This document shows positions 12,326-62,211 of a stretch of 64,000 bases of DNA, in pieces (position 1 is the first letter of the stretch; each line of letters begins with the position of its first letter). The DNA lies in assembly GCA_963845355.1 (NCBI GenBank), contig CAWJRV010000005.1:80495-144494 (forward strand), read 5' to 3'. The translations under genes were made by a program, and so were the position numbers. Under the pieces are notes generated by a model. It was not told the origin of the DNA, made no database searches, and saw only the letters and a program-made list of their open reading frames with translations. This stretch comes from an uncultured Actinomycetes bacterium (lineage in GTDB: Bacteria > Actinomycetota > Thermoleophilia > UBA2241).

Positions 12326-12337
12326 AGAGAGCGCGTC

Positions 12338-17422: not shown

Positions 17423-18411
17423 CAGGCGTTCACCCGCGGGTCGATGTAGTACATCATGATGTCGGCGATCAGGTTGGCGACGATCACGGCCACGCTGCCC
17501 AGCAGAAAGACGGCCTGCATCACGGGGTAGTCGTGAGCGTCCATCGACTGGTACGAGAGTAGTCCGATCCCCGGCCAGTTGAAGACGCTCTCAATGAGGA
17601 TCGCGCCCGAGACGATGAACCCCAGGTTCATCATGACGAGGCTCACCGTGGGCAGCATGGCGTTGGGCACGACGTGGTGCCAAAGCACGTTATTGCTGCT
17701 CAGGCCCTTCGCCTGCGCCGTGAGGACGTAGTCTTCTTTCATCACGCCGGTGAGCGAGCTGCGCATGATCAGGTGGTACTCGCCGTAGTAGCCCAGGGCG
17801 AACATGATGACCGGCAGCGTGATGTGGTAGAGCAGGGTCTCCAGGGTGGTGAAGTCGAGCGGGATCGGGCCCCACATCGCGAAGTGTGCCATGGGGGTCG
17901 ACTCGCGGCCTACCGGAAACCAGCCCAGCGCGACCGAGAAGAACATGATCGCCAGCAGGCACTGCCAGAAGGTTGGCATGGCGTACATGACCATGCTCAC
18001 GTCGGTGCTCGCGGTGTCGAAGGGCTTGCCGCGCTTCCAGCCGGCGATCACGCCTTCGACCATGCCGATGACGGTCGCCAGCAGCGTGCCGAGGCCGCAG
18101 AGGATGATCGTCGGCCAGATGCGTTGGGCGACGATCTGGGTCACCGGCACCTTGAACGCGAACGAGTAGCCGAACCTGAGCCGGGCTGTGTCGGACCAGT
18201 AGTAGATGAACTGCTCCCACTTGGGCACGTTCAGGTGGAACGCCGCCTCCTGCTGGGCGATCGCGGCGGCGGAGACCTTGCCCTTGGGCAGCAGGAGCCT
18301 CGCCGGATTGCCCGGCATGATGCGGAACAGGAAGAAGTTGAACGAGGCGACGAGGACGATCGTCAGCAAGGCGTTGGCGATCTTGCGGATGAAGTAGGCG
18401 CGCTTGTTCAC
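17422..18411 (-). CDS. ABC peptide transporter permease, DppB/OppB-like
   Basis: N-terminal YFIRKIANALLTIVLVASFNFFLFRIMPG. EAA motif region LTAQAKGLSSNNVLWHHVVPNA. C-terminal MMYYIDPRV. Confidence 0.9.
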   Translation of the reverse strand: MNKRAYFIRKIANALLTIVLVASFNFFLFRIMPGNPARLLLPKGKVSAAAIAQQEAAFHLNVPKWEQFIYYWSDTARLRFGYSFAFKVPVTQIVAQRIWPTIILCGLGTLLATVIGMVEGVIAGWKRGKPFDTASTDVSMVMYAMPTFWQCLLAIMFFSVALGWFPVGRESTPMAHFAMWGPIPLDFTTLETLLYHITLPVIMFALGYYGEYHLIMRSSLTGVMKEDYVLTAQAKGLSSNNVLWHHVVPNAMLPTVSLVMMNLGFIVSGAILIESVFNWPGIGLLSYQSMDAHDYPVMQAVFLLGSVAVIVANLIADIMMYYIDPRVNA

Positions 18412-18598: not shown

Positions 18599-18758
18599 GC
18601 AGGGGCCCGTGACCGGTGGCGGGTCCGGCGCCGGCGACGTCTGTCGACGCAATGAGCGTATAGAATCGCCTCGAGTCGGGGAGCGGCGGGGCGCGACGAA
18701 GACAGGGCGGAGGCGGCGGCGGTGGCCGCGCGACGCCGACCGAGCACGGGGGGCACTG

Positions 18759-20611
18759 ATGAGACGCACACGCATGTCGTGGCGTCGAGCGGTCCTGCTG
18801 GCGACGACGGTGATCCTCGTGGCCGGTCTCGCTGTGGGGTATCACTCGGCCCTCGCTTCGAGCGCCAGCCCGTCGCCGACCAGCGGCAAGGTCATCCTCC
18901 GGCTCGGCTGGACGGCCGGCCCGGACAACCTCAACCCGTTCATCGGCTCGAACTCGCAGGCGTTCACCGTCTGGTACATGAACTACGACACGCTCGTGGG
19001 TCTGAACACCACCGACGTGGCGCCAAACAAAACGACGGGGCTCGCCACCGACTGGACGACCAGCGCCCGACGGCAAGACCTGGACCTTCACCATCCGCAA
19101 GGACGCCAAGTGGCAGGACGGCCTGCCGCTGACCGCCGCCGACGTCGCCTGGACGTACAACTACATCGTCAAGAACAACATCGCCAACTGGACGAGCTAC
19201 ACGACGAACATCGTGCAAAGCGACGGCGCTCGACGCCTATACGGTGCGCATCGACTGCTCCGTCGCCTCAGCCGGCCCTGCTCGCCAACGTGGCCGAGGT
19301 GCCCATCCTGCCCGAGCACATCTGGGCGAAGATCCCGGCCAAGACGGCCATCCACACCTTCCCGAACACGCCGCCGATCATCGGCAGCGGGCCGTTCCAG
19401 TGCGTCCAGTGGAAGAAGTCGAACTACCTCGTGATGCAGGCCAACAAGAGCTACTGGCGCGGCGCCCCGCACGTCGACGACGATCGTCTTCGAGGAGTAC
19501 ACCAACGCCGACACAATGGGCGAGGACATGAAGTCGGGCGCCATCGACGGCTGCACCGGCCTGCTCCAGGCGCAGATGCAGATGCTCGTCGCACATGCCC
19601 GGCGTTGAAGTCAGGCCGGTGTACGTCAACGGCTACGACGAGCTCGGCTTCAACTGCTACACCGGCGGTCCGTCGCTGGGCAACCCCGTCCTCAAGGACT
19701 GGCGGTTCCGCCAGGCGCTGCAGTGGGCGGTCGACAAGAACAAGCTCTGCGCGATCGCCTACGGCGGCATGGCCAAGCCGGCCGACACGATCATCACCGC
19801 CAACTACTACCGCAACCCCGACTGGCACTGGACGCCGCCGGCCGACCAGGCCTACAGCTTCAACCTGGCCAAGGCCTCGCAGATGCTGACCGCCGCCGGC
19901 TACAAGCTGGTCAACGGCGTGCGCCTGAACAAGCAGGGCAAGCCGATCTCGCTGCGGCTCTACGCCCGCAGCAGCTACCAGCAGAGCATCACTTGCGGCG
20001 AGTTCATCACCGGCTGGTTCCGCCAGCTCGGCCTCAAGGTCACCCTCTCGACGCTCGACGACGGCGCGCTCGAGAGCGACCTGTACAACACGGTCAAGGG
20101 CGTCTTCACGCCCAACTACGACATGTACGAGTGGGGCTGGTACAACGACGTCGATCCCGGCCCGTCCTCAGCCTACTTCACGACCGCGCAGATCAACAAC
20201 GAGAGCGACTGCGCCTGGTCGGATCCGCTCTACGACGCCACCTACAAGGCGCAGTCGACCGAGATGGACCTCGCCAAGCGGCTGCAGCTCGTCTACAAGT
20301 GCCAGCAGATCATCTACCAGCAGTCGCCCTATATCCCGCTGGCCTACTCCGACGACACCGAGGCCTGGAACACCTCGCGGTGGACCGGCTGGGTGCAGAT
20401 GCCCGCCAACGTGGGCAACGTCGTCGTGCCGCCGTACGGTTATGAGACATACTTCTCCGTCAGGCCCAAGACGGGCAGCGGCGGGACCCCGGCGGGCCTG
20501 ATCGGGGTGCTCGTCGTCGCCGGCATAGTGGTGGTCGCGGTCGTGGGCGGCGGGCTCTATACGCTCATCAAGCGGCGCACGCGCGCGTCCGACGTGCCGC
20601 TCGAGGAGTGA
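18759..20611 (+). pseudogene. Family-5 solute-binding protein (DppA/OppA-like) with C-terminal TM anchor, disrupted by at least four frameshifts
   Basis: Signal peptide + VILRLGWTAGPDNLNPFIGSNSQAFTVWYMNYDTLVG. The reading frame jumps near 19065, 19215, 19490 and 19600. The C-terminal 338 aa is intact and ends in a TM helix (LIGVLVVAGIVVVAVVGGGLY). Confidence 0.75.
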
Positions 20612-20798: not shown

Positions 20799-22185
20799 AT
20801 GAAGCGGTTTCTGTTGGGACTCTCGTGTACCGCGCTGGTCGTGGCGGGGGCGGCCGTCTGGGCGGGCGCGGCGGCGGCCGCGACCAGACCGGCCACCCAC
20901 ACCGACCCGCTCGTGACCACGCTTCCGGCCGCGGGCGTGCGCCCGGCTCTCGGCGACCGTCCGTTCCACGGCACGACGGTCACCTCGTCTAACTGGTCGG
21001 GCTACGACGACTCGACCGACGGTCCGTTCACCACGGTCACGGCCACCTGGGTTCAGCCGCGCGTGCGCACGACCGGCGCGACCTTCTCCGATGCCGCCTT
21101 CTGGGTGGGCCTCGACGGCGACAACTCCGACACGGTCGAGCAGATCGGCACCGAAGGCTATAGCGAGGGCGTCGCCGGCTACGACGCCTGGTATGAGATG
21201 TATCCGCTCTACCCGGTGACCATCGACATGGCCGATCCACGCCGGCGACGTGCTCACCGGCACCGTCACCTTCGCCGCGCCGGCGAGCCTTCACGCTGAC
21301 CCTCGTCAACCACACGAGGGGTAAGTCGTACACCGACCGGACAGATCATGGGCATCCCGCCCGCAGCTCGCGTCGGCCGAGGCGATCGCCGAGGCGCCGA
21401 TCGCGACAGCAGCGGCGACGTCGTGGCGTCGTCCGACTTCGGCATCGTCAGGTTCAGCGGTTGCACGTTCGACAACCAGCCGATCGGCACCTTCGACTGG
21501 AACCAGCATCGACATGACCTCCGAGTACAGCGGCGGCCTCGTGGCGCAGACCTCGGCACTCGGCGCCGACGGCGACGAGCTTCAGCGGTGACGACCGACG
21601 TGACACCGACCGACACGACGGTGCTCGGGCGCCGGCTCGGCTGGCACGACAAGGCGGTGAGGCTGCACCTCCGGGCCATCGACAACCGCGGTGGTCTGGG
21701 CGTGGCCTACACGCGAGTACTCGCTCGACGACGGCGCGACCTGGGCGAACGGGCGACCGCGTCACGGTGCCCGCCCCGGCCGATCACAGCGCCGACGGCG
21801 TCGACAAAGTCGTCTATCGCTCGGCCGACAAGGCGGGCAACATCGAAGCAAAGCGCGTCAGCCGTGCTCATCGACACGCGCCGGCCACGCCCGTCGCCAA
21901 ATGGCCGGCGTCCGCCGTCGCGGCGCTCGCACCGCCTTGCGCTTCTACGTGGCGACCCGCGCCCGGGCAGCCCCACGGCGACCGTCACGATCCGCATCCA
22001 CAACGCCCACGGCGCGCTCGTCAAGAAGGTCGTGCTGCCCGGCGGTCAGGGTCGACACCGTCGGTGGACTACGACTTCACCTGCTGGCTGCCCAAGGGCG
22101 CCTACAGGTTCGCCGTCGCCGCCACCGACGCGGCCGGCAACGCGCGCAGACGGCGCGGCCGCCAACACGCTGGTGGTGCGCTGAT
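20799..22185 (+). pseudogene. Peptidase-G1 (eqolisin/scytalidoglutamic peptidase)-like secreted protein with Ig-like C-terminal module, multiply frameshifted paralog of 41045..42610
   Basis: Signal peptide. SNWSGY, AAFWVGLDGD, VEQIGTEGY and YDAWYEMYP motifs. Downstream pieces in three frames: GVAYTEYSLDDGATW…DHSADG…YRSADKAGN…DPRPGSPTATVTIRIHNAHGALVKKVV…ATDAAGN. Confidence 0.7.
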
Positions 22186-22263
22186 GCGCCGCCGCACCGA
22201 GGGCGTCCGGCGAAATCGTCGACGCCGTTCTGAGTCCCGGTTCCGTCGTAAGGGGGTCTGCAC

Positions 22264-25037
22264 ATGAAGCGCGCCTGGCTCGTTGCCTGCATCGCCGCTG
22301 GCCGCGTGGCGCCTGGCGGCCGTTGGGGCCCCTCCGGCTCAGGCCCTCGTGCCCGACGGCGGGCACGGCTGGTTCTGGCAGATGCCGCAGCCCGCGACCG
22401 GTCTGAGCGACGTCACGTTCGCGCGCCGGGCAGTACTGGGCGGTCGGCGTGGGCGGAACCATCCTGCACAGCACCGACGGCGGCGCTCACCTGGGCGGCG
22501 CAGCCGACCGGCTCCGACGCCGACCTCTGGTCGGTCAGCTTCGCCGACGCCCAGCACGGCTGGGTCGGTCGGCGCACGGCGCGGGAACCGGCGACGCCTG
22601 ATCCTCGCCACCACCAACGGCGGCGCCGCCTGGACCGACGAGACGCCGGGCGGCCTGACCGATTGGCTCACCAACGCGAGCTTCGTCGACGCCGCACACG
22701 GCTGGATCGGCACCAACGACGGCAAGGTCCTCAAGACCAGCGACGGCGGCGGCACCTGGCAGACGCTGAAGCGTCGCCGCCGCCTACAAGGGCTACCTCA
22801 CGGTCGACTTCGTCGATGCCACGCACGGCTGGGCGGGCGGCACCAGCGGCCGCATCTGGACGACGGTCGACGGCGGCGCGACCTGGACGGCCCTCCCGCG
22901 CGGCTCTGACGGCCCGGACATGCGGTCGTCGTCCAGCTCGATTTCGTCGATCGCCGCGACGGTTGGGTGCTCGGCCAAGACACTATGGCGACTCCGTGGT
23001 CATGACGACCAACGACGGCGGGCGCTTCTGGCGCCCGGTACCGACTGGGGACCGTCCACGACCGGCATCTACGCCGCGAGCGCGGGCGACGTCTGGCTCG
23101 TCGGCCAGGACTGGATGGACTACGACGATTCTCAGGCTCCGACCATCTGAAGCACTCGAGTGACGGCGGGTTCACTCTGGAAGACGTCGACGATCAGCGC
23201 GCCGGCCATGCCCTACGCGATCGCGGCGGGCGGCGGTTCGGTCTGTGCCGTGGGCGACGGCATCCTCGTCTCCGGCGACGATGGGGCGACCTGGCAGTCG
23301 GGCAGCTCGGGCCAGCAGTACTGGTTCGCCGGAGCCGACGCGGTCTCGGCGACCGACGTGTGGGCGGTCGACTCCGCCGGCGCCCTGTTGCACAGCACCG
23401 ACGGCGTGCGCTTCGCCGAGCAGCCCGATCTGGTCCGGGGGGCGATCGCGCTCATGGGGGTCAGCTTCCCCAACGCCAGCGACGGCTGGGTGGTGGGAGC
23501 CAGCGACCAGTGGGGTGACGGCAGCGTGATCCTCCACACGAGCGACAGCGGCGCGACCTGGGGTCCGCAGCAGTCCAACCTGGGCGGCGAGCTCGACGGC
23601 GTCGATTTCATCGACGCGCACACCGGCTGGGCGATCAGCGACGACAACTCCGGGTGGAACGCGGGGGCCAACCTCACGATGCAGCACACGACCGACGGCG
23701 GCGTCACCTGGATCCCCAGTTCGTCGCCGGCAACACCGCGCTCAGCGCGGTCGACTTCGTCGACGCCTCGACGGGTTGGGCGGCCGGCGGTGTGTATTCG
23801 GAGGGCAATCCCGCGGCGGCGGTCTTCGCCTCGACCGACGGCGGCTTCACCTGGACCAGGGAGAAGCTGCCCAAGGGCGCTCCCGCCATCACCGGGCTGC
23901 AGTTCCTGAACAAAAGCGACGGCTGGGCCGTCGGCACGAGCTGGACGCTGGACGACGCCACCGACACCGCCACGTCGGATCAGGGCTGGGTGCTGCACAC
24001 CACCGACGGTGGCGCGACGTGGCAGCTCGTGTCCGATCTCGACGACAGCCTGGCCACCACGGTGCACTTCAGCGACTCGAGCAACGGCTGGGTCGGAGGC
24101 CTGAACGGCGTCTATGCCACCACCGACGGCGGCTCGACCTGGCAGCGTGTCGCCGCGGGCGACGGGGTCGAAGCCATCGCCGCCACCGACGCCCAGCACG
24201 TGTGGGCGTTCGGCGACGGCTTTCTCGTGTCGACGCTCGACTCGAACGGCGACTCCGCCGCTCCCGTGACCCTCGATCCACACAACGACTCCGTCTGGCG
24301 CAACAAGACGGTGACCATCGGCTTGCTGGCCAACGACGTCGGCGGCTCGGGCGTCGCCGGAACGCAGACCAGCCTCGACGGCGGACGCCTGGCAGCCCGG
24401 CGCGTCCATCGTTGTGCCGGCCTACGCGGACCACCACTTCGACGGCACGCACACGATCCTCTACCGCTCCGCCGACAACGCCGGAAACCAGGAGCAGACG
24501 GAGAGTCTGACGGTCGGCGTCGACACGCTGGGCCCTGCCTGCTCCGTCCCCCGCACGAGCGTCGTCGACGCCGGTAGCCGCGGGCCGCTGTTCTTTATGG
24601 CGACCGACGAGAACAGCGGGGTCAAAGAGGCGACGATCACGATCGTCGGGGCTCACGGTCGCGTGCTGCGCAGATTCGTCGAGCACGCGGGCGACTGGGG
24701 CGCCTCCCCGTCGCCCTCCTACTACTGGACGCGGTTCAACTGCACGCTGAAGCCCGGCACCTACCGCGTCGAGGTGCATGCCGACGACTGGGCGGGCAAC
24801 CGCCAGGTCACGGTGGGTCACGGTGTGCTGCGGGTGGTACGCCGCGGGGCTCCCGAGTTCTCGCCACCGTGGTGGCCATCCGGCTTGCCCTCCGAGTCCA
24901 TGGGTACCCGCCTGAACCACGGTCTGCGGCCGGCCTGGCTGTTGCGCCAGCCCGGCAGCCCGACCGTCGTGCACGCGGCGTCGCATCGCGGCGCCTGGAA
25001 GGCCCAGCACTGGCCGGAGGTCCGCGCGAAGCGCTAA
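22264..25037 (+). pseudogene. Ycf48/BNR-type beta-propeller secreted protein (possibly a double propeller) with the same C-terminal module, at least eight frameshifts
   Basis: Repeated blades of the form …HGW.VG..GTIL.TTDGGATW… spread over all three + frames. The C-terminal part reads …HTILYRSADNAGNQE…ATITIVGAHGRVLRRF…GTYRVEVHADDWAGN. Confidence 0.65.
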
Positions 25038-25219: not shown

Positions 25220-26554
25220 ATGAGATATTGCCCCAACTGCGAGCTCTCCATCGGTGAGACGGCGACGTTCTGCGCGACCTGTGGCGCGCGGGTGCCGAAT
25301 GTAGCCGCGACCCGGCAGTCACCCTCGCCGCCTGCGTCCGCCGCAGCGGTACCGGACGCGCCGCCGTCTGACTCCGTCAGCCCGGTCGCTCCACCGCCGG
25401 TGGCGGTCCTCATCTCCCCTCAGGGGGTGCTCCTGGCAGCTCCTCCCGTGGCGGCCGGCACTGCGCCGGTCGTGGCTGCGGCCGCGCCGGCAACGGCGTT
25501 TCCGGCCGCGCCGGCGACCGCGTTTCCGGCCGCGCCGGCCATGGCGTTTCCGGCCGCGTCGAGCAGGACGCCGGCGATGCCGACCGCGACGGGCGGTGCG
25601 ACCGCGATGCCGACCGCAACGGGCAGTGTGACCGCAGAGCCGCTTTTGCCACCGCCGCCGGCGCCCGCTTCCGAGGCGCCTCCAGCGCCGGCAGCCGAGC
25701 CCGCGCCGGTCGCTTGCAGGATCTGTGGACGCACGGCGTCCGCCGTCGAGAACGAGGGTGTGTGCCACGCGTGTCGGGCCGACCTGGACCTCTTTGTGGC
25801 GGCCGGCGCGTCGGAATCTGCCGGAGTGAGCCTCGCGGGCAACGTGTCGACCGGCGGTCGTCAACGCCTCACCGCAAGCAATGCGATCTACTCGGCGCTG
25901 GCCGACGACGACACGTGCCCCGAGTGCCGCGCCATGGATGGTCGCGAGACAAGCGACATCGCCGCCGCCGCAGGTTGGGCACCGAACCGGCAGTGCCGCA
26001 GCCCGCAAGGTTGCCGCTGCGCGGTCTTTTACGAGCACGAGAGCCTGGCCGCCGGCGAAGAGCCCGCCTTCATAGACTATGTCGCCGCTCATGGCCTGCA
26101 CGTCACGGCTCCCGCCGTGAGCGCCTTCCGCGGCGAGACGCACAGGCTCAGGCAGACCGCCGCTCACCTCGACGATGCCTCGCGGTCGCTCGCCGAGGCG
26201 CGCACGTTGGAGAAAGTCGACCCGCAACAGGCGGTCGCACGGTATCGTCGAGCTATCGACAGCCTCCTGGCCTGCGGCCAAGAGCCTCTCGACGAGCGCT
26301 GCGTCAGGCGCGATCTGCCCCTGGCGTTCAACCGGCTCACCCTGGTGCTCAAGGCTCTGGGCCGTCGCAGCGAGGCTCTCGACGAGATCGAGCGCGCGGT
26401 GGCAACGGGGATCCTCGAGCGCGATGACTGCGGCAGGAAGGCAGATCGGGACGCCCTCCTGAACCGCCGTCGACGGCTGCAAGAGGGCCTGACCGCGACC
26501 GACTCTGCCCCCCGCCACCGTCTGACCGCGACCGCCGCCGCCAGGCAGCGCTAG
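25220..26554 (+). CDS. Zinc-ribbon protein with Pro/Ala-rich repeat linker and a phage-Mu-F/SPP1-gp7-like Cys motif
   Basis: N-terminal double zinc ribbon YCPNCELSIGETATFCATCGARV. Tandem-repeat linker. Second ribbon CRICGRT…CHACR. Then TCPECRAMDGRETS…GWAPNRQCRSPQGCRCAVFYEHE, resembling the MuF C…C…dG…HPnCRC motif. Helical C terminus. Confidence 0.6.
   Translation: MRYCPNCELSIGETATFCATCGARVPNVAATRQSPSPPASAAAVPDAPPSDSVSPVAPPPVAVLISPQGVLLAAPPVAAGTAPVVAAAAPATAFPAAPATAFPAAPAMAFPAASSRTPAMPTATGGATAMPTATGSVTAEPLLPPPPAPASEAPPAPAAEPAPVACRICGRTASAVENEGVCHACRADLDLFVAAGASESAGVSLAGNVSTGGRQRLTASNAIYSALADDDTCPECRAMDGRETSDIAAAAGWAPNRQCRSPQGCRCAVFYEHESLAAGEEPAFIDYVAAHGLHVTAPAVSAFRGETHRLRQTAAHLDDASRSLAEARTLEKVDPQQAVARYRRAIDSLLACGQEPLDERCVRRDLPLAFNRLTLVLKALGRRSEALDEIERAVATGILERDDCGRKADRDALLNRRRRLQEGLTATDSAPRHRLTATAAARQR
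25484..25555. repeat. 3 x 24-bp in-frame tandem repeat encoding (APATAFPA)x3; adjacent 2 x 30-bp repeat at 25575..25634
   Basis: Units gcgccggcaacggcgtttccggcc / gcgccggcgaccgcgtttccggcc / gcgccggccatggcgtttccggcc. Confidence 0.8.
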
Positions 26555-39529: not shown

Positions 39530-40961
39530 TCACAGGTCCTCCTGCTCGAAACGTGGGGAACGGCGCGGAAACAGCCAGACGCGAAACAGCGCGAAGCGCA
39601 GCAGCGTCGCCGTCACGTTGGCGCGCACCAGCACGGCGAGCTCGAGCGCGCGCGCCGCGGCGGGTCTGAGCGCTGCAGGATGAACAGGCTGCCGCTGGTC
39701 ACCGCGAGGCCAAGGGCGAACACGACGAGGCCCTGGCCCTGGTGTCGCAGCCGCCTCGCCGGGCCGCGCACGCCGAACGTGAGGCGCCGGTTCGCGGCGG
39801 TGTTGGCGATCGCCGTCACGAGCAGCGCCAGGGCGTTGGCCCACTGGGCCGGACATGATCTCGCGCGCCAGCAGGTAGAGCGAGCAGGTAGGCCAGCGTG
39901 CTGACCACCCCGATCAAGCCGAATCGCAGGAGCTGACCGGCCAGCTTCGCCGGCGCTGCTCCGCCGGCGCCGGAGCGCCAGTCGCGCGGGTCGCGCGGGT
40001 CGCGCGGGGCCGGCAAGGCCAGCTTGCCGCTCCTGAGCGTACGACTGAGCCGGGCGATGCCCTTGAGGTCGGCCACCGCCGTCGCGACGATGTCGACGCG
40101 CGAGTCGGGGTCGTCGACCCAGTCGACCGGGACCTCGTGGATGCGCAGGCCGGCGCGCTCGGCCAGCACCAGCAGCTCGGTGTCGAAGAACCAGCCGGTG
40201 TCCTCGACCAGAGGCAGGAGCTCCGCGCGCCCGGTCGGCGCGGATCGCCTTGAAGCCGCACTGAGCGTCGGAGAAGCGGGCGCCGAGCGCCGCATGCACG
40301 AGCAGGTTGTAGCAGCGTGAGATCGAACTCGCGCTTGGCGCCGCGCACCACGAACGACGTGCGTGAGAGCCGCGTGCCGATGGCGAGGTCGGAGTGTCCC
40401 GAAAGCAGCGGCGCGACCAGGGGTAAGCAGGGCGGCCAGGTCGGTCGAGAGGTCGACGTCCATGTAGGCGAGCACGGCGGCGTCGCTTGCCGCCCACACG
40501 GTATGCAACGCTCGTCCGCGGCCCTTGGCGTCGAGATGGACGGCGCGCACGCCGGGCAGCGCATCGGCCAGTGACTGGGCGATGGGCCAGGTGCCGTCGG
40601 TGCTCGCGTTGTCGGCGATGGTGATGCGAAAGGTGAACGGCAGGTTCCGCGAGAGGTAGTCGTGCAAGCGAGTCACGCCTCGGGCCAGATCTCTCTCCTC
40701 GTTGAACACGGGCACCACCATGTCGACCGCCGGGGCCGGCGCCGACGCCGGCTTTGCCGCCGGAGCGTGGCCCTCGCCGCGAGGGGTGAGCGGCCGGGAG
40801 AGGAAGGCTGCCCCGGAACGTCGCGCGTCGCGGGGTGCCCTTGCCGTGTCGGGTGAGGATGCCGTCGTCATGGCAGTCAAGGTATCCGCCCGCCCTGAGG
40901 CCTCCCTGAAGCCCGGCTGGGAGGTTCCTGTGACGACGGCGGACTCCAACGGGGCTCTCAT
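39530..40961 (-). pseudogene. GT2 polyprenyl-phosphate-sugar synthase (Dpm1/Ppm1-like) fused to GtrA-like domain, frameshifted
   Basis: VVPVFNEERDL…ITIADNASTDGT…LDAKGRGRALHTVWAASDAAVLAYMDVDLSTDL…, with the continuation in another frame. GtrA-like C terminus LAGQLLRFGLIGVVSTLAYL…ANTAANRRLTF…, again in another frame. Confidence 0.65.
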
Positions 40962-41044
40962 TTGCCGCGCCCCGACCGCGACGACTACACTGATAGGCCG
41001 TCAAGGGCGAGAGCGGGTGCGAGAGCGCTCGGGTCCGCTTCTCG

Positions 41045-42610
41045 TTGCGGAACTGCTGGAGGGCTTACGTGAGACGCTGGAAGACGGCGCTGTCACCGAT
41101 CGTGCCGGCGCTGTGCCTCGCGAGTGTGCCAGCCCTGGCCGGCGCGGCCGGTGTCCCCCCGGCGTGGGCGAGCTCGCCGCTCGCCGTATCGACACTCGCC
41201 GCCTCGACTCCGACCTCTGCGGGTGTGGGCCTGCCGGTGCCGTCGCCGGGCTGGGTGCTGCCGGCGGGGTTCGTGCAGCCGGGCGGTCCCCTGCGGCCGA
41301 GCGGCGCCTTGCAGCCGGGCGGGGTAGCGCAGCCTCTCGGCCGGTCGTTGTCGCAGCGCGGCACGCGCAGCGAGTCGCCCAACTGGTCGGGCTACGACGT
41401 GACCGGCGGGCCGTTCACGAGCGTCACGGCGACCTGGACCCAGCCGCGCGTGCGGCCCAGCGCCGACTTCACCGATGCCGCCTTCTGGGTGGGGCTCGAC
41501 GGCGACAGCGCCGACCCTTCGGTCCCTTCGCAGACCGTCGAGCAGATCGGGACCGAAGGCTACACGCTGCAGGGTGTGCACTACGACGCTTGGTATGAGA
41601 TGTATCCCGACTACGCCCACTACATCACCTTCGGTAAGGGCAAGGCCAAACACCTCATGGGCATCCGCCCCGGCGACGTCATCACGGCGAGCGTCACCTG
41701 GAACGGCACGTCCAGTTTCACGCTGTCGCTTGTCGACAAAACGACCGGCCGCTCGTTTTCGACCGTCCAGCCGATCGCCAAGGGTGCCCCCCAACCGGAG
41801 CGTTCGTCGGCCGAGGTGATCGCCGAGGCGCCCTCGCTGAGCGACGGCTCATTGCTCTCGGTAGCCAACTTCGGGCTGGTGCGGTTTCGTGGCTGCGCCT
41901 TCGACGACCAGCCGATCGGAGCGTTCGACTGGTCTCGCATCGACATGGTCTCCTGGGACTCTCACGCCACCGAGGTCGCTACCTCGGCGCTGAGTCCCGA
42001 CGGCACCGCCTTCGACGGTACCACCGATTTTCGGCGGCCGGTGACGACGGTCGCCCATACTCCTGCCTGGGTCAGCCAACCCGTGACGCTGCGTTTCAAG
42101 GCCTCCGACAACCCGGGCGGCACAGGCGTCGCCTACACCCAGTACTCACTCGACGGCCAGGCGACCTGGACGAACGGCACGTCGGTCACACTGCCGGCCC
42201 CAGGCGACCATTCCGCCGACGGCCCGGCGACGGTCTGGTACCGTTCAGCCGACAAGGCCGGCAACCTCGAAAGGGCGCACCGTTACGTCGTGCACATCGA
42301 CACCCGCAGGCCCACGGCGGTGGCGCAGTGGCCGGCAGCCACGACGCGCGGCGGCCGGGCGCTTCTGCGCTACTTCGTCGGCGATCCCCGGCCGGGCAGC
42401 CCGACGGCTACCGTGACGATCAGGATCCGCGCCAAGGGCGGAGCCCTCGTGAAGAAGATCGTGCTGGCCGGCAGGCCGGTCGACACAAGTCTCTCCTGCG
42501 GGTTCGCCTGCTCGTTCGCCAGGGGCGTCTACCGGGTCGTCGTGTCGGCCACCGACACCGCCGGCAACCCTTCGACGGCGTCGGCGACCACCACGCTGAC
42601 CGTGCGCTGA
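41045..42610 (+). CDS. Secreted peptidase-G1 (glutamic peptidase/eqolisin)-like protein with Ig-like plus DPRPGSPTATVTI C-terminal module (intact)
   Basis: Signal peptide. SPNWSGYDVTGGPFTSVTATWTQP, AAFWVGLDGDS, VEQIGTEGY, YDAWYEMYP. Then GVAYTQYSLDGQATWTNG…DHSADGPATVWYRSADKAGNLE…IDTRRP, and DPRPGSPTATVTIRIRAKGGALVKKIVL…GVYRVVVSATDTAGN. Confidence 0.75.
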   Translation: MRNCWRAYVRRWKTALSPIVPALCLASVPALAGAAGVPPAWASSPLAVSTLAASTPTSAGVGLPVPSPGWVLPAGFVQPGGPLRPSGALQPGGVAQPLGRSLSQRGTRSESPNWSGYDVTGGPFTSVTATWTQPRVRPSADFTDAAFWVGLDGDSADPSVPSQTVEQIGTEGYTLQGVHYDAWYEMYPDYAHYITFGKGKAKHLMGIRPGDVITASVTWNGTSSFTLSLVDKTTGRSFSTVQPIAKGAPQPERSSAEVIAEAPSLSDGSLLSVANFGLVRFRGCAFDDQPIGAFDWSRIDMVSWDSHATEVATSALSPDGTAFDGTTDFRRPVTTVAHTPAWVSQPVTLRFKASDNPGGTGVAYTQYSLDGQATWTNGTSVTLPAPGDHSADGPATVWYRSADKAGNLERAHRYVVHIDTRRPTAVAQWPAATTRGGRALLRYFVGDPRPGSPTATVTIRIRAKGGALVKKIVLAGRPVDTSLSCGFACSFARGVYRVVVSATDTAGNPSTASATTTLTVR

Positions 42611-53647: not shown

Positions 53648-55468
53648 ATGAGTAAGAAACGCCGCTGGTGGCTGATCGTCCTGATTGTGGTGGTCGTCGT
53701 CGCGGCGGCGACCACGGCTGCCCTGCTGCTGCTCGATCGCAACAAGTCGACGGGAGTCCACTACCTGACATCCACCGCGGCCACGGGGACGATTGCCCAG
53801 ACTGTGCAGGCCGACTTCACTCTGGCCAGTGCCCGCGACTCCATGACGATCTCGCTCAGCGGCACCGGCAGCACGTCGAGCGCCTCGAACAGCAGCGCGG
53901 CAGCCACGACCGCCAGTGCCACGACCGCTCGCGCTGCGGTCATCACGGTCAGCGACGTCACCAGCGGCTCTTCGGCTCCGCACGAGGCGACGGCCGCCGG
54001 CCCCGCGGTCACAGAGAGAGTGGTCACGACCGACAGAGCGACCACCACCGACGACCCCTCGACGCCGACACCCACGCCGGCGCCGACGCCCACGCTCACG
54101 AGCTTTGCGCCGACCTCAGGCCCGGTGGGCAGCAGCGTGACCCTGACCGGCAGCGGCCTCACCAGTACCACCGCGGTCAGCTTCGGCGGGAGTGCGGCGT
54201 TCTTCAAGGTCGCAAGCGACACGAAGGTCACGGCGATCGTACCCGCCGGCGCCGTCAGCGGCCCCATCACCGTCACAACCGCCGGCGGCACGGCCACGAG
54301 CGTCGGCCGCTTCACGGTCGCGTCCAACTCCAGGCCCACGCCCACGCCGAGCCCGTCGCGAAGCGCCCATTCCGGCGGGAGCGGTGGCAGCTCGTTTGCC
54401 AGCAGGAGCACCGGCACGACTGCGAGCAGCGGCGGTTCCACGACGTCGAGCGCGAGCGCGGCCGCCTCGAGCGGCGCGAGCGGTGTGGTGACCGGCATCG
54501 CGCTGGCCGCCGGCAAGACGCCGCGCACGCTCGAGCACCTGCTCACCGTCTCGGGTAAGCCCATCTACGCCTTCGTGAGCCCTACCCCGCTGTACACGAC
54601 GCTTTCCACCAGTCTCTCGGCGGGCGACCAGAGGTCCAACGTGGCGGCCCTGCAGCACGCTCTCAAAGACGACGGCTACTTCACCGGCACCATCAATGGC
54701 GACTTCGGCACGACCACCCAGACCGCGCTCGAAGACTGGCAGGGCGCCCACGGCCTGACCAAGACCGGGGAGATCACCACCGCACAGTTCGTCTGGGTTC
54801 CCAGGGGGGCGACGCTTGAGTCATGGAACGTGAGCCTCGGCGGCAGCGTCGGCAACTCCACCGCGCTGGCCACCGTCGACTATCCCCGTGACCTGATCGC
54901 CCAGGCGCTCGTGACGCAGGCCGACGTCTCGTCGCTGAAGGTCGGCCAGAAGGCCATCCTGACGATCGACGGCGAGACGAGCGACCCCTTCACCGGTACC
55001 ATCACCTCGATCGCCACTCAGCCCGCCTCATCGGGCTCGTCGGGCGGCTCGTCGAGCACCGTCGAGTACACGGTCGACCTTGTCCCGCGGGCTCTGCCGT
55101 CGCTCGCCAGGTCGGGCATGACCGGTTCGCTCACAGTCACGATAGCCAGCCGCAGCAACGTGCTGGTGGTGCCGACGAGCGCCGTGAGCGGCACCTCCTC
55201 GGCGTCGTTCGTGCGCGTCATGATGAGCGGCACGCCCACCTATCGCCAGGTCACAACCGGTCTTGCGACCTCGTCGCTCACGCAGATCACGAGCGGTCTT
55301 GCCGCCGGCGAGACGGTCGTCACCGGTCAGTACACGAACTCGGCGACGAGCACGAGCACGAGCGGCGGTCTGGGCGGTTTCGGCGGGTTCGGCGGCGGCG
55401 GCGGCTTCATTCGCCGCTCGACCGGCGGTTCCACGAGCGGCGGGTTCACTGGCGGCGGCGGCCAATGA
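53648..55468 (+). CDS. Efflux adaptor (membrane-fusion protein) carrying an IPT/TIG domain and a peptidoglycan-binding domain
   Basis: N-terminal TM. IPT/TIG-like PTLTSFAPTSGPVGSSVTLTGSGL…VSGPITVTTAGG. PG-binding-like NVAALQHALKDDGYFTGTINGDFGTTTQTALEDWQGAHGLTKTGEI. HlyD-like C terminus. GGFGG tail. Confidence 0.7.
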   Translation: MSKKRRWWLIVLIVVVVVAAATTAALLLLDRNKSTGVHYLTSTAATGTIAQTVQADFTLASARDSMTISLSGTGSTSSASNSSAAATTASATTARAAVITVSDVTSGSSAPHEATAAGPAVTERVVTTDRATTTDDPSTPTPTPAPTPTLTSFAPTSGPVGSSVTLTGSGLTSTTAVSFGGSAAFFKVASDTKVTAIVPAGAVSGPITVTTAGGTATSVGRFTVASNSRPTPTPSPSRSAHSGGSGGSSFASRSTGTTASSGGSTTSSASAAASSGASGVVTGIALAAGKTPRTLEHLLTVSGKPIYAFVSPTPLYTTLSTSLSAGDQRSNVAALQHALKDDGYFTGTINGDFGTTTQTALEDWQGAHGLTKTGEITTAQFVWVPRGATLESWNVSLGGSVGNSTALATVDYPRDLIAQALVTQADVSSLKVGQKAILTIDGETSDPFTGTITSIATQPASSGSSGGSSSTVEYTVDLVPRALPSLARSGMTGSLTVTIASRSNVLVVPTSAVSGTSSASFVRVMMSGTPTYRQVTTGLATSSLTQITSGLAAGETVVTGQYTNSATSTSTSGGLGGFGGFGGGGGFIRRSTGGSTSGGFTGGGGQ

Positions 55469-56658
55469 CGGTTTTTCTCGAGTCGCTGCGCCTGGCGTTC
55501 TCGAGCCTGCGCGCCAATCCGCTGCGCGCGGTGCTGACCATTCTGGGGATCGTCATCGGAGTGGCCGCGGTGGTCGCGCTCACCTCCATAGGCAGCGGCT
55601 CGACACGAGCGGTCGAGAACCGCTTCAACGCCTTCGGCACCGACACGATCACTGTCCAGACCAGCCAGTTCTCCTCAAGCGCCGCGCCGATATCGGCCGG
55701 TGATGTGGCCGCCATCGACGCCACTCCAGGAGTCAAGGCGACCGTCACCTCTGTGAACACGAACGCCACTGTGGCGCTCGGCACGACCAGTGCCACCGAG
55801 ACGATCAGCGGCACGGCGCCGCAGATCGTGGCGATCGACCACCTCACGATCGAGGCCGGCACCTTCTTCAGCGCCTTCGACGCGAGCCACAGCCTGCCGG
55901 TCGCGGTGCTGGGCAACACGGTGGCCGGCGACCTTGACATCTCACCGTTGCGCGCGGTGGGCCAGACGATCGATGTCGGTGGCGTGCAGTTCAAGGTGAT
56001 CGGCGTGCTGGCTGCGCAGGGCGGTGTCGGGTTCGCCTCGGTCGACTCCAGCGTACTGGTGCCACTGGGCGCGATCGAGGGCCGCCTGGTCGCCTTCAGG
56101 CCCGACATCTCGCAGGTCCGCGTACAGGCCGAGCCGGGCGCGGTCGGCACCTTTCAGGCGGCCGTCGAGACCACCCTGCGCACGCAGCACGACCTGACCA
56201 GCAGCGAGCAGGACGACTTTCAGATCATAAACGCGAGCTCCATCGCCTCGGCGGTCTCGTCGTCGACCAAGACCCTCACCCGCCTGATGGCCGCCATCGC
56301 CGCGATCAGCCTGGTGGTGGGCGGTATCGGCGTGGCCAACGTGATGCTGGTCACGGTGCGCGAGCGCACCCGTGAGATCGGCGTGCGGCGCGCTGTGGGC
56401 GCCACCCGGCGCGACATCGTCGTGCAGTTTCTCGTGTACGCCCTCATCACGAGCATCATCGGTGGCATCCTTGGCCTGGGCGTGGGCATAGCCGGCGCGT
56501 ATATCGGCGGTTCGGCCCTGAGCGTGTCACCGGTGTTCTCGGTGGCGACGGTCAGCCTGGCGCTGGTGGTCGCCGCGGCGGTCGGCATCCTGGCCGGCAT
56601 CGGTCCGGCCGTGCAGGCCGCATCGGTAGAGCCCACGGCGGCGCTGCGCTACGAGTGA
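55465..56658 (+). CDS. MacB/FtsX-family ABC transporter permease
   Basis: N-terminal TM + periplasmic MacB_PCD-like domain + C-terminal FtsX 3-TM bundle. Confidence 0.85.
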   Translation: MTVFLESLRLAFSSLRANPLRAVLTILGIVIGVAAVVALTSIGSGSTRAVENRFNAFGTDTITVQTSQFSSSAAPISAGDVAAIDATPGVKATVTSVNTNATVALGTTSATETISGTAPQIVAIDHLTIEAGTFFSAFDASHSLPVAVLGNTVAGDLDISPLRAVGQTIDVGGVQFKVIGVLAAQGGVGFASVDSSVLVPLGAIEGRLVAFRPDISQVRVQAEPGAVGTFQAAVETTLRTQHDLTSSEQDDFQIINASSIASAVSSSTKTLTRLMAAIAAISLVVGGIGVANVMLVTVRERTREIGVRRAVGATRRDIVVQFLVYALITSIIGGILGLGVGIAGAYIGGSALSVSPVFSVATVSLALVVAAAVGILAGIGPAVQAASVEPTAALRYE

Positions 56659-58498: not shown

Positions 58499-59770
58499 TC
58501 AGCTCCGAGGGTCTCTGATCAGCGCCATGAACAGCGGGGCGGCGGTGGTCTTGTCGGTGAGCAGCAGAAGGAACGGGTGATCGGCGCGGATGGTGAGCGG
58601 CGCGAAGGGCGCAGAGCCCTCGGCGACGAGGGCGGCCGTCGCGGCCGCCGCCTCGACACCCGTTTCGTTGACGTTCAGCACGGCCTTGTGCACGACGCGC
58701 TGGATGTAGACGCGGCCCTGCGTGCCCGGCGCCACGATGCCCTGCAGCTCGGCCTGCGACGGCGAGAAGGCCGAGATCATGCCCAGGGCCTCCAGCTCGG
58801 GTTTCAGGTCGGGGCTCGAGAAGGCGGTGTGAAGGCGCGGCAGGTCGAGCATGACCTGGGCGGTCCGGGCGCCGCGATACAGCGCGTCCAGACCGCTCCG
58901 CTGAAACTGAGCGAGCAACGACTCGGGTGTCTGGCCGGAGCGCGGCACGACCACCCAGGCGGTGACCTGACCCTTGGTGGCGAGGGCCACAGCGTCGTAG
59001 CTCGGCGTCTGGGCCACCGGGCCGCTGACCGGCCCGTTCATCGTCGGCACGCTCACGGTACTGCCGTCGGCCAGGGTGAAGGGGGCCGCATGGGTCGCGC
59101 CGGCCGCGAACGGCACGCGCCAGTCGGCCTTGACGTGCACCGTGTTCACCACGGTGAGGATCGTCTGGTCGGTGAAGTAGCCGGGCTGGACGATCTGCTT
59201 GATCAGGTCGTTCGTACGCTGAGCGACCCAGTCGTTCACGGCGCCGGCAGCCTTGGAAGGGTCGGTCGGCAGCGGCTGCGTGCCGGCGGCATAGAAGGCG
59301 CGAGCGGCGTTGAGGAACGCCGGGTTGAACGCCACGCCGTCGCGCAGCCAGAGCGAATCGGCGATCTCGACCGCGGGCTTGCCGCCGGCTTGCGCCGAGG
59401 CGATGAGGTCGGCCCAGGCCTGGTTTGTGGCCGGCAGGGTCAGGCCGTCCAGGGCGAGCGCTCGGCGCATCTCGGTCGCGGTTTGCCCGGTGGCGCCGTT
59501 CAGCAGCAGCGAGAGCACGGCATGGATCGAGAGCGGCGAGATGACCACGTTGCCGCTGTCGTCACGCGCCTCGTCGGCCAGCAGGGCGAGACCGAAGCGG
59601 TCGAGCGGCGCGGCCAGCAGAGCAGCCTGGGTCGTGGCCGCGGGGTCGCCGCGGGCCGGGTTCAGGGGCGTCGCCGCGGCGCGGGTCGTGGCATGCAGCG
59701 TGGCGACGACCGCGACCGCGGCGCCACAGGTCGCGACGAGCACGATGGCGATGATGACGATGCGGCGCAT
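58499..59770 (-). CDS. Serpin (serine protease inhibitor) family protein, secreted
   Basis: VISPLSIHAVLSLLLNGATGQTATEM… and a C-terminal reactive-centre-loop/serpin signature …IRADHPFLLLLTD…PLFMALIRDP. Signal peptide. GGGGAGG RBS. Confidence 0.8.
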   Translation of the reverse strand: MRRIVIIAIVLVATCGAAVAVVATLHATTRAAATPLNPARGDPAATTQAALLAAPLDRFGLALLADEARDDSGNVVISPLSIHAVLSLLLNGATGQTATEMRRALALDGLTLPATNQAWADLIASAQAGGKPAVEIADSLWLRDGVAFNPAFLNAARAFYAAGTQPLPTDPSKAAGAVNDWVAQRTNDLIKQIVQPGYFTDQTILTVVNTVHVKADWRVPFAAGATHAAPFTLADGSTVSVPTMNGPVSGPVAQTPSYDAVALATKGQVTAWVVVPRSGQTPESLLAQFQRSGLDALYRGARTAQVMLDLPRLHTAFSSPDLKPELEALGMISAFSPSQAELQGIVAPGTQGRVYIQRVVHKAVLNVNETGVEAAAATAALVAEGSAPFAPLTIRADHPFLLLLTDKTTAAPLFMALIRDPRS

Positions 59771-59912
59771 GGCCCCTCCCCTTGTCTTGCGGAGCCTACC
59801 TACATTTTCCGTCTGCAAGGGAGAGACGCCGCGAGCCGCGCGGCGGTTCGCCGGACGCTCGGCGGGCGCACGCCGGCGGTTCGCCGGGCGCTCGCCGCCG
59901 GGCGCGAGGCTG

Positions 59913-60329: not shown

Positions 60330-60612
60330 CGTCTTCTCCTTCAAGCTCGAGGCGCGCGCCGGCGTCGGTGATCGGATGCTCCGCGGTGCACTCCCGCCAT
60401 GGCGGCCGGCATACTGCCGACGGCCTCGCTTGCGAGGCCCTGCCGGCCTAGCTATCCCCTTGCGAGGCGGCCGGAAACCGCGTTTGAGCGACACGCGTCG
60501 CTCCGTGCTAGGCTATCGGTGGGAGGGCCCTTATGCTGCGCGCAGCGCCGGTCAGGTGCGGGTCGCCCCAGGTTGAGTCAGTCGAGTGACCGCCGACAAA
60601 GGGAGGGAGACC

Positions 60613-62211
60613 GTGAAGCACGCTCCTCAGGTCTTGCTCATCGTCGCCGCGCTGACCGTCGCCATGAGCGCCGCCGTCGCCGCGGGCGCCGTCGGCGTAG
60701 CCGGCGCGGCGAGCGCGGCGAGCGCCACCGCCGCGGCGAGCGCCACCGCCGCGCGGGTCGGCTGGACGGCCCGCCAGGCAAGTTCCGACGCCCCCCTGCT
60801 GTCTGTCGCCACGACCGATGTGGCACACGCCTGGGCGGTCGGCCCCGGCCCGACCATCGTGGCCACCACCGACGGTGGTGCGACGTGGGCCCCCGAGGCG
60901 CCTGCGACCACGAACGACCTCTATGGCGTCACCTTCGCCGACGCCACCGACGGCTGGGCCGTCGGACCCGCCGGCACCGTGGTCGCCACCACCGACGGCG
61001 GCGCCGACTGGACGCCACAGAGCGTCCCGACATCGCAGACCCTGATCAGCGCGGCCAGCCGCGGTCAGAACGCCTGGGTGGTGGGGGCCGGCGGCACGAT
61101 CCTGGCCACCACCGACGGCGGCGCGACCTGGTCGGCACAGAGCGCGCCGCGCGGGCAGGACCTCTTCTCTGTGACGTTCGCCGACCCAGGCCACGGCTGG
61201 GCCGTGGGCGACGACGGCACCATCCTGGCCACCACCGACGGCGGCGCCGTCTGGACCGCTCAAAAGTCGCCGACCGCGGACTATCTGAACGGCGTGGCCT
61301 GCCAGGGTACGACACGCGCCTGGGCGGTCGGCGAGAAAGGGGTCATCCTGGCCACCAGCGACGGCGGTGCGCGCTGGCTGGTCCGTCGGGCGCCCCACGC
61401 CCACGCGCCCGATCTCTACACCGTCGACTTCGCCTCGAGGAGTCACGGCTGGGCGGTCGGACTCGGCGGCCTGATCCTGGCGACGGTCGACTACGGCAGA
61501 ACGTGGCGCGCGCAGCGCTCCCCCTCGGACCAGGTCTTCACCTCAGTGGACTTCACCGACCCGCTTCACGGCTTCGTCACTGAGATCACCGGCGCGGTGC
61601 TGACCACCACGACGGGGGGATGGTCCGACAAGCTGCCGCCGACCGTCTCCGCCACCGGTGTCGCGGGCTGGCATGGGCGCCCGTTCCATGTCCGGCTGCA
61701 GGCGGCCGACGGGCAGGGTTCTGGCGTGGCGACGGTGCAGTATTCGTTCGACCATCGCGAGACCTGGACGACGGGCGTCACGTTCGCGGTGGGGGCGCCG
61801 GCCGATCATAGCAGCGACGGTAGCCACGAATTCTGGGTGCGCGCCGTAGACAACGCCGGCAACGTCGCGCCCACCCGCGCCTTTCATGTGCGCATCGACA
61901 CGCGCCGCCCGGTGGCCAAGGCTCTGTGGGCGGGCCGGGCGGTCAGCGGTCAGCCGGCGGCTCTGCTCTGCGCCGTGAGCGATCCGCGCCCCGGCAGCCC
62001 GACGGCAACGGTCACGATCACCGTGCGGACGGCGTCCGGCCGGACGGTGAAGATCCTCAGGTTCGCCCGGCGCCCGGTGGGCCAGAAGCTGACCTGCCGC
62101 TTCCGCTGCACGCTGGCCGCGGGGCACTATCGCTTCTTCGTGTCGGCGACCGACGCGGCCGGCAATCGGGCCGCAGTCGCGGCCGCCAATAGCCTCACAG
62201 TCCTGCCGTAG
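60613..62211 (+). CDS. Secreted Ycf48/BNR-type beta-propeller protein with Ig-like plus DPRPGSPTATVTI C-terminal module (intact)
   Basis: Signal peptide. Seven or eight blades …HAWAVGPGPTIVATTDGGATW…. Then GVATVQYSFDHRETWTTG…DHSSDGSHEFWVRAVDNAGNVA…IDTRRP, and DPRPGSPTATVTITVRTASGRTVKIL…GHYRFFVSATDAAGN. GGGAGGGA RBS before the GTG. Confidence 0.75.
   Translation: MKHAPQVLLIVAALTVAMSAAVAAGAVGVAGAASAASATAAASATAARVGWTARQASSDAPLLSVATTDVAHAWAVGPGPTIVATTDGGATWAPEAPATTNDLYGVTFADATDGWAVGPAGTVVATTDGGADWTPQSVPTSQTLISAASRGQNAWVVGAGGTILATTDGGATWSAQSAPRGQDLFSVTFADPGHGWAVGDDGTILATTDGGAVWTAQKSPTADYLNGVACQGTTRAWAVGEKGVILATSDGGARWLVRRAPHAHAPDLYTVDFASRSHGWAVGLGGLILATVDYGRTWRAQRSPSDQVFTSVDFTDPLHGFVTEITGAVLTTTTGGWSDKLPPTVSATGVAGWHGRPFHVRLQAADGQGSGVATVQYSFDHRETWTTGVTFAVGAPADHSSDGSHEFWVRAVDNAGNVAPTRAFHVRIDTRRPVAKALWAGRAVSGQPAALLCAVSDPRPGSPTATVTITVRTASGRTVKILRFARRPVGQKLTCRFRCTLAAGHYRFFVSATDAAGNRAAVAAANSLTVLP

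Follow-up and report, generated by a model that had tools for sequence, protein, structure and literature searches.

The original prediction for this stretch of DNA, an uncultured actinobacterium's 64,000 nucleotides of contig CAWJRV010000005.1 that we analysed as a whole (hereafter, the window), called an open reading frame (ORF) at 41045..42610 (+) with a glutamic-peptidase G1 (eqolisin)-like domain. This raises the question of whether the gene encodes a working peptidase and, if so, what such an enzyme would do for its host. We confirmed the ORF in the window and compared its product, the focal protein, with profiles, structures, and related loci. We think it quite probable that it is a catalytically competent, acid-active G1 endopeptidase that is exported by the Sec pathway, carries a linker that serves as a tether or is clipped off, is anchored by a tandem of immunoglobulin (Ig)-like domains, and contributes to extracellular proteolysis for nitrogen and peptides in soil or peat.

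Family membership and active site

We took the definition of the G1 family from Jensen et al. 2010 (PMC3009609) and Stocchi et al. 2018 (PMC6154417). In Pfam, this MEROPS family is represented by PF01828 (Peptidase_A4), the only peptidase family there that the protein matches. The match covers profile positions 1–185 of 206 and, at 102.9 bits (E = 2.1e-29), exceeds the gathering cut-off of 22.3, which bears out the predicted domain and gives a clear answer to the profile search that had been proposed as a check. When the PDB was searched with phmmer, aspergillopepsin II (1y43, E = 5.7e-8) and scytalidopepsin B (1s2b, E = 1.3e-6) were the sole significant sequence relatives with solved structures.

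The hallmarks of eqolisins are, in the numbering of scytalidoglutamic peptidase (SGP), the catalytic dyad Q53/E136, the glycines G8, G41, G44, and G55, D43, the segment Y64–Y71 including W67, and P72 (PMC6154417). We checked these positions, as well as D45, in an alignment of the focal protein with 120 relatives and the SGP sequence, numbering residues on the 513-residue protein counted from a GTG codon at 41069. The equivalents are G108, G142, D144, G145, D146 (at SGP D45), Q159, G161, Y172–Y179 (with W175), P180, and E253; they are retained in 107 to 119 of the 120 relatives. Both members of the dyad are in place, Q159 on SGP Q53 and E253 on E136, and each is kept in 119 relatives. The only hallmark change is the conservative replacement of W70 by Met, a residue also present in 107 of the 120 relatives. 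The four hallmark motifs named beforehand are all found (SPNWSGY at residue 103, AAFWVGLDGD at 137, VEQIGTEGY at 157, and YDAWYEMYP at 172).

The structure of the protein was predicted with AlphaFold2 (AF2) from a 47-sequence alignment. The model is confident from residue 97 on, with a predicted local distance difference test (pLDDT) of about 75–97 over most of the G1 domain. A Foldseek comparison with the PDB placed scytalidoglutamic peptidase entries on top (2ifw_A, 2ifr_A, and 1s2b; E from 1e-11 to 5e-10), with template modelling (TM) scores of 0.78–0.80 normalised to the focal protein and around 25% identity to scytalidoglutamic peptidase. The predicted structure has the G1 β-sandwich, i.e., two antiparallel sheets with a substrate cleft. 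The profile match, the dyad, and the structure comparison thus all turned out as the original prediction had anticipated. Of the two outcomes that it had set against itself, the lack of a significant profile match and the absence of the catalytic Gln and Glu, neither was observed, and we thus assign the protein, from its sequence, to the G1 (eqolisin) peptidases with intact active-site residues.

The conserved disulfide of the fungal enzymes (C101–C181 in the numbering of the SGP precursor) is absent, as the G1 domain contains a single cysteine (C276). This does not bar the protein from the family, because the disulfide is not a defining feature: no G1 member from bacteria or archaea has it, and this holds for the active enzyme pepG1 as well (PMC3009609).

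Start codon and integrity of the reading frame

The longest version of the ORF starts at TTG 41045. From the sequence, GTG 41069 is more likely the start, because it is preceded at 6 nt by a Shine-Dalgarno-like GGAGGG, because a database protein 100% identical to the focal one (P0001) is 513 aa long, and because the N-termini of relatives, some with ATG, begin at the position aligned with this codon.

Since several nearby genes of the window have broken frames, we examined the integrity of the focal one. The window (G+C content around 70%) is collinear with a contig of the uncultured actinobacterial metagenome-assembled genome (MAG) MFD01188.bin.1.141 (locus L001), at around 85% nucleotide identity. 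Relative to this closest ortholog, the gene has three indels only (3, 6, and 3 nt), all in-frame and all in the N-terminal low-complexity region, and its product aligns with relatives over the full length. We considered hidden compensated frameshifts, given two unusual loop insertions, and rejected them: these loops are real features of the clade, because the relatives P0002 and P0004 have them too, and the indels relative to L001 are limited to those just listed. We then estimated the ratio of nonsynonymous to synonymous substitutions (dN/dS) against the same ortholog, with a Nei-Gojobori method that is rough in so GC-rich a genome. It is 0.145 in the G1 domain, 0.44 in the C-terminal module, and 0.86 in residues 1–96. 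Hence, the G1 domain is under purifying selection, the strongest of the protein's regions. Scans for a sigma-70-type promoter around the gene and for a terminator in the gap between it and the downstream DedA gene found none; in an actinobacterium of 70% GC, such scans are uninformative as to the operon structure.

A peptidase head on a basic tandem of Ig-like domains

The N-terminus of the protein starts with MRRWK, continues with a hydrophobic stretch at around residues 6–28, and ends in an AXA-type site (AWA/SS). By a hydropathy heuristic, it looks like a Sec signal peptide, as had been predicted, and would hence direct export; an uncleaved signal anchor is a possible alternative reading of the same segment. 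It is the sole hydrophobic segment of the whole protein.

The region that follows had been described as a low-complexity stretch of about 90 aa resembling a pro-region. Such a stretch exists, but it is about 62 aa long (residues 35–96), and it is unlike the basic pro-segment of fungal enzymes. Counted with the signal peptide, that pro-segment is about 55 aa long (PMC6154417). The linker departs from it in that it is disordered (pLDDT < 50), consists for 60% of P, G, A, and S with no acidic and two basic residues, varies in length among relatives, and evolves nearly neutrally. In pepG1, the mature protein starts 8–10 residues ahead of the NWxGY motif (PMC3009609), and by analogy it is plausible that the linker is clipped off as a pro-segment.

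The catalytic domain carries a clade-specific peculiarity. The loop after YEMYP, corresponding to the 70s loop of SGP, is extended by around nine Lys/His-rich residues (ITFGKGKAKHL) in the focal protein, P0002, and P0004, and not in distant relatives. The 70s loop of SGP takes part in substrate binding (PMC6154417), and the extension might alter substrate specificity.

The C-terminal 195 residues (319–513), overlooked by the original prediction, are a tandem of two Ig-like domains (hereafter, the C-module). The first matches the NCBIfam model of an OmpL47-type barrel (NF047446, 54.7 bits against a cut-off of 40), and the second matches Pfam Big_13 (PF19077), marginally, with 28.1 bits where the cut-off is 27. 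Modelled alone, the C-module has a pLDDT of 90, and its fold matches are limited to generic tandem Ig/FN3-like proteins: SiiE BIg (query-normalised TM score of 0.61), contactin FN3, and complement MG domains. The two halves of the protein differ sharply in charge, with an isoelectric point (pI) of 4.8 for the catalytic head and of 10.5 for the C-module. This split is family-wide: the median pI of the heads is at most 4.05 and that of the tails 10.3, with 43 of 45 tails above 8.

Distribution and comparison with characterised enzymes

The original prediction held the family to be mostly fungal. We searched 1.84 billion representatives of clusters at 50% identity with the G1 domain and obtained 4,090 clusters at E ≤ 1e-3, of which 1,555 were found at E ≤ 1e-10. 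The lengths are mostly 230–280 aa, and longer multidomain forms are also numerous. A search with two short peptide patterns resulted in 457 confirmed relatives in bacterial and archaeal genomes (one genome per species), including Kitasatospora, Streptomyces, Streptosporangiaceae, Acidimicrobiaceae, Bryobacteraceae, and Terriglobales. The first bacterial enzyme was characterised in 2010, with a pH optimum of 3–4 and insensitivity to pepstatin (PMC3009609). Because of these numbers, the existing annotation of bacterial members, and the 2010 enzyme, the fungal label is out of date (PMC3009609, PMC6154417). Bacterial G1 peptidases have been known since then and are routinely annotated, and the focal protein adds another member.

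To compare loci, we used 80 related G1 loci retrieved from bacterial and archaeal genomes. The three-part architecture (G1, OmpL47-type barrel, Big_13) is found in 37 of them, every one from uncultured MAGs, and the 38 closest loci include no cultured member. Judging by record titles, many of these 37 loci derive from samples of palsa, bog, fen, and Danish soil, and MAGs of palsa, bog, fen, and other soils also supplied the closest relatives. One database relative, MGO8683131.1 (P0092, from a Thermoleophilia MAG), is 51% identical to the focal protein and has the same architecture. Such relatives bear automated names ("G1 family glutamic endopeptidase" or "Peptidase A4 family"), and many, unlike the focal gene, are part of a two-gene cassette described below. 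A search of the literature available to us found nothing relevant on this clade.

Among characterised enzymes, the best comparison is with pepG1, from Alicyclobacillus sp. DSM 15716, which was the first bacterial G1 peptidase to be studied (PMC3009609). Both proteins are bacterial, have a signal peptide, which in the focal protein is a predicted one, the Gln/Glu dyad, and the G1 motifs, lack the fungal disulfide, and carry an N-terminal segment before NWxGY, which in pepG1 is removed on maturation. They differ in that pepG1 is a single-domain protein of around 28 kDa from a thermoacidophilic Firmicute, whereas the focal protein adds the 62-aa disordered linker and the 195-aa basic Ig tandem, belongs to an uncultured actinobacterial lineage, and is a peptidase by prediction. 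The fungal scytalidoglutamic (SGP/SCP-B; 1S2B, 2IFW) and aspergilloglutamic (1Y43) peptidases share with it the dyad, the hallmarks, and the fold, which for the focal protein is a prediction. Unlike it, they begin with a basic pre-pro-segment of around 55 aa, contain conserved disulfides, and lack additional domains, and the focal protein differs from them by its longer 70s loop and its N-terminal region. All characterised G1 enzymes are single-domain, so the protein documents a multidomain G1 architecture. By analogy with the family, it would be expected to work at an acidic pH and to be insensitive to pepstatin; the low pI of its catalytic domain and the peat and soil sources of its relatives are indirectly in keeping with this. 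Acid-stable, pepstatin-insensitive proteases are of some biotechnological interest.

Neprosin provides a more distant comparison, and it uses two glutamates. It has in common with the focal protein the glutamic catalytic class, in which a glutamate acts on water at acid pH, and the two belong to separate families. The neprosin report (PMC9343461) describes the enzyme as a prolyl endopeptidase of the glutamate class whose pro-domain is all-β.

Genomic context and a recurrent G1/propeller cassette

The focal gene has PMT/YkcB-type and GT2 glycosyltransferase genes upstream, in divergent orientation, and the genes of a DedA/VTT protein (42705) and of a HAD hydrolase downstream. These neighbours are kept in 7–8 of the closest orthologous loci (L001–L009), and the locus is syntenic in at least eight species-level MAGs.

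A tblastn search of the window with the focal protein revealed a second G1 copy and two proteins that match the C-module only and whose heads are seven-bladed propellers of the Ycf48 type (Table 1). The G1 paralog resembles the focal protein in architecture and is broken in frame in the window; its syntenic ortholog in locus L017 is an intact gene of 459 aa with a PF01828 match of 103 bits. It is followed by the gene of a Ycf48-like double BNR β-propeller that ends in the same type of Ig tandem. This partner is also frame-broken here, and intact in L017 as an ORF of 970 aa. The other protein, intact in the window, has a single propeller, with matches to PSII_BNR (124.9 bits), Big_13 (39.7 bits), and Ycf48 structures (E around 1e-23). 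Its C-module is 43% identical to residues 301–512 of the focal protein, and it shows a similar split in charge (pI 4.7 for the head, 11.2 for the tail).

In 19 of the 80 loci, from 12 MAGs, a gene combining G1 and the C-module precedes one combining a propeller and the C-module, on the same strand and after a gap of 70–220 bp. The window's second copy shows this arrangement too (20799–25037). The two-gene cassette is defined in the present analysis and is not a published system. No propeller partner lies directly downstream of the focal gene, where the DedA/VTT gene is found instead. Two of its orthologous loci, L003 and L004, have the upstream glycosyltransferase genes of the focal locus together with a propeller partner, whereas the window locus, L001, L002, and L005–L009 lack the latter. 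For this reason, we regard the focal gene as a "solo" member of the cassette family. Directly upstream of the G1 paralog, there is a gene for an oligopeptide-type binding protein (SBP_bac_5), and genes for OppC- and OppB-type permeases diverge from the block formed by these three genes. An SBP_bac_5 gene precedes a G1 gene in 8 of the 80 loci, with OppB/C-type permeases nearby.

We know of no established function for the Ycf48 homologues of nonphotosynthetic bacteria, and the recurrent pairing with G1 peptidases is for this reason a testable lead on them. The literature available to us contained no account of such a pairing, which does not prove that it is novel. A search for other heads on the C-module was uninformative, as it returned mostly short fragments and one weak match headed by a subtilase (31% identity).

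An apparent natural fusion of G1 and propeller (P0103/P0105, 736 aa; locus L081, 4001–6211) was rejected as a likely frameshift read-through of adjacent genes. P0105 has no signal peptide, and its match to the focal protein ends midway through the last Ig domain, ahead of the BNR repeats. Evidence from domain fusions in such MAG assemblies thus calls for caution. Directly downstream of the cassette, at 25220–26554 (+) in the window and at 11733–13823 in L017, a gene encodes a zinc-ribbon protein that contains an extended region rich in Pro and Ala and has a Phage_Mu_F-like match, a weak one.

Proposed mechanism, role, and alternatives

The reading that we favour can be broken down into steps. 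The N-terminal signal peptide would export the protein through the Sec pathway, after which the disordered linker of around 62 aa would either tether the enzyme or be clipped off, as the N-terminal segment is in pepG1. In the active site, water would be activated by Glu253 in the role of general acid/base, and Gln159 would polarise the scissile carbonyl and stabilise the tetrahedral intermediate, both as in scytalidoglutamic peptidase. The basic Ig tandem would hold the acidic head on a polyanionic surface, be it that of the cell envelope itself or of organic matter in the soil. The outcome would be the extracellular breakdown of proteins and the acquisition of nitrogen and peptides by an uncultured Actinomycetota/Thermoleophilia-like bacterium of soil or peat. 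Acid-active extracellular proteolysis could then be a nitrogen-acquisition trait of the actinobacteria of peat and acid soils, for which the expansions of G1 paralogs in acidifying fungi offer a parallel (PMC6154417).

Besides the results on family, fold, selection, and charge given above, this reading is favoured by the position of the G1 paralog directly downstream of the SBP_bac_5 gene and next to OppB/OppC-type permeases, by the SBP_bac_5 genes upstream of G1 in 8 of the 80 loci, and by the soil sources of the closest relatives, taken with the pH optimum of 3–4 of the characterised bacterial enzyme (PMC3009609). Several points weigh against it. The focal locus itself has no peptide-transport neighbours and is instead flanked by GT2 and PMT-type glycosyltransferases, DedA, and the HAD hydrolase; because of this, the nutritional role is drawn from the context of the paralog and from family precedent. 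The linker differs from the basic fungal pro-segment, and zymogen behaviour is thus uncertain. The putative anchoring role of the C-module on a polyanionic surface is suggested by charge and fold, and the acidity of the habitat by the names of the MAGs.

The main alternative is a dedicated processing or maturation protease, in which the G1 head would cut specific envelope or secreted proteins, such as the Ycf48-like propellers, and the shared module would bring the enzyme together with its substrate or partner. The tight spacing of the two genes in the 19 loci of 12 MAGs and in the window's second copy, the basic C-module common to both proteins, and the envelope-related neighbours conserved around the focal gene (GT2, PMT-type glycosyltransferase, DedA) all point in this direction. 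Yet, a propeller partner is missing at the focal locus and in the majority of its nearest orthologs (L001, L002, and L005–L009), and every G1 enzyme characterised to date is an extracellular endopeptidase of broad action (PMC3009609, PMC6154417). Moreover, the adjacency of genes does not prove that one product is the substrate of the other, and the sole apparent fusion of the two (P0105) looks like a frameshift artefact. We thus regard a processing role as unlikely, if still the most serious competitor of a nutritional one. The chances are far lower that the protein is a pseudo-peptidase, i.e., a noncatalytic, lectin-like β-sandwich that uses the G1 fold as a scaffold for binding. The eqolisin fold does resemble that of concanavalin A-like lectins and glucanases (PMC6154417), and the Ig-like domains are of a type found in adhesins, but the dyad and the substrate-binding hallmarks are kept in the focal protein and in 116–119 of the 120 relatives, and purifying selection is strongest precisely on the G1 domain.

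Two further alternatives have hardly any probability in our view. One is that the focal gene is a paralog in decay or without expression, comparable to the second copy with its broken frames, since that copy and several other genes of the window are split across frames. The end-to-end alignment with relatives, the exclusively in-frame indels relative to the ortholog, the low dN/dS of the catalytic domain (0.145), and the synteny of the locus in at least eight species-level MAGs argue against it. The other is that the peptidase is paired with, or regulated by, a serpin. The original prediction had noted a serpin gene at 58499..59770 and had called any functional link speculative. The serpin itself stands (PF00079, E = 2.1e-78), whereas its extent has to be corrected, as the ORF covers 58499..59818 on the minus strand. 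Serpin inhibition depends on a covalent acyl-enzyme intermediate in which the protease is trapped, and no such intermediate arises with glutamic peptidases. The serpin of the window carries a hinge of the inhibitory type (GVEAAAATAA) and, at its N-terminus, a hydrophobic membrane or signal segment, and these traits suggest a functional inhibitor that probably acts outside the cytoplasm. These traits and its presence in the same 64-kb window are what the link would have in its favour. The two genes are, however, 16 kb apart on opposite strands, with an MBL-fold hydrolase, a phosphoesterase, and an HlyD/MacB-type exporter between them, and none of the 80 G1 loci has a serpin within 8 kb of the G1 gene. 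Since the acyl-enzyme trap is also incompatible with a glutamic peptidase, we rejected the serpin–G1 pair, in line with the reserve expressed beforehand.

The cassette suggests an evolutionary scenario that we put forward tentatively and hold to be possible though doubtful. The family would have expanded, in a lineage-specific and so far undescribed way, among uncultured Actinomycetota/Thermoleophilia of soil and peat, where a MAG has 2–5 paralogs. The ancestral unit would be a cassette encoding a G1 peptidase and a double Ycf48-like propeller, both acidic and both joined to one type of basic Ig tandem. Through this shared tandem, the two proteins would settle on a common polyanionic surface, either the cell envelope or organic matter. 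The two would form a two-component apparatus for the extracellular capture and digestion of proteins, sometimes next to an oligopeptide importer, and the focal gene would have arisen from such a cassette by loss of the partner, as a solo derivative.

Features, state of the window, and other genes

Table 1. Coordinates of the focal gene, its parts, and the related genes of the window, with the basis of each assignment.
Feature	Position in window	Strand	Basis
Shine-Dalgarno-like GGAGGG	41057..41062	+	Read from sequence; 6 nt 5' of GTG start
Coding region for the G1 peptidase, 513 aa + TGA stop	41069..42610	+	ORF, profile matches, relatives
Predicted Sec signal peptide, aa 1–34	41069..41170	+	Hydropathy scan; conserved in relatives
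Disordered Pro/Gly/Ala/Ser-rich linker, aa 35–96	41171..41356	+	pLDDT <50, composition, dN/dS ~0.86
G1 (eqolisin) catalytic domain, aa 97–305	41357..41983	+	PF01828, Foldseek, dN/dS 0.145, pI 4.8
Codon of catalytic Gln159 (SGP Q53), motif TVEQIGTEG	41543..41545	+	Alignment; Q in 119/120, gap in 1
Clade-specific extension of the loop after YEMYP (SGP 70s loop), aa ~181–199	~41609–41665	+	Alignment
Codon of catalytic Glu253 (SGP E136), motif SAEVIAEAP	41825..41827	+	Alignment; E in 119/120, D in 1
First Ig-like β-sandwich domain (OmpL47-type barrel), ~aa 319–412	42023..42304	+	NF047446, pLDDT >90
Second Ig-like domain (Big_13), ~aa 413–513	42305..42607	+	PF19077, fold matches
OppC- and OppB-type permeases	15971–18411	-	Divergent from SBP/G1/propeller block
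SBP_bac_5 oligopeptide-type binding protein	18609–20611	+	Profile match; directly upstream of G1 paralog
Second G1 paralog, architecture like that of the focal protein, 40% identical to it	20799..22184	+	tblastn; frame-broken in window
Partner of the paralog, Ycf48-like double BNR β-propeller + C-terminal Ig tandem	22264..25037	+	tblastn, profiles; frame-broken in window
Intact secreted protein of 541 aa, single Ycf48-like seven-bladed propeller + basic C-module	60586..62211	+	tblastn, profiles

Breaks in reading frames lie in three stretches of the window (18.6–25 kb, 34–36 kb, and 38–41 kb) and leave the focal gene unaffected. In comparison with intact orthologs in L001 and L017, the SBP_bac_5 gene (18.6–20.6 kb) and the second G1 copy with its propeller partner (20.8–25 kb) are split across frames, as is, relative to intact orthologs, the GT2 gene just upstream of the focal one (39613–41004). 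Indels whose length is not a multiple of three reach 19–26 per kb at 21–23 kb. These breaks could be errors of a long-read assembly, perhaps worsened by paralogous repeats, or real gene decay.

The window also includes ordinary envelope genes, at 10391–14464 (+) and 53648–56658 (+). They encode a LytR-CpsA-Psr protein, a class A penicillin-binding protein with transglycosylase and transpeptidase domains, and an HlyD-like protein with a peptidoglycan-binding domain, adjoining a MacB/FtsX-type permease.

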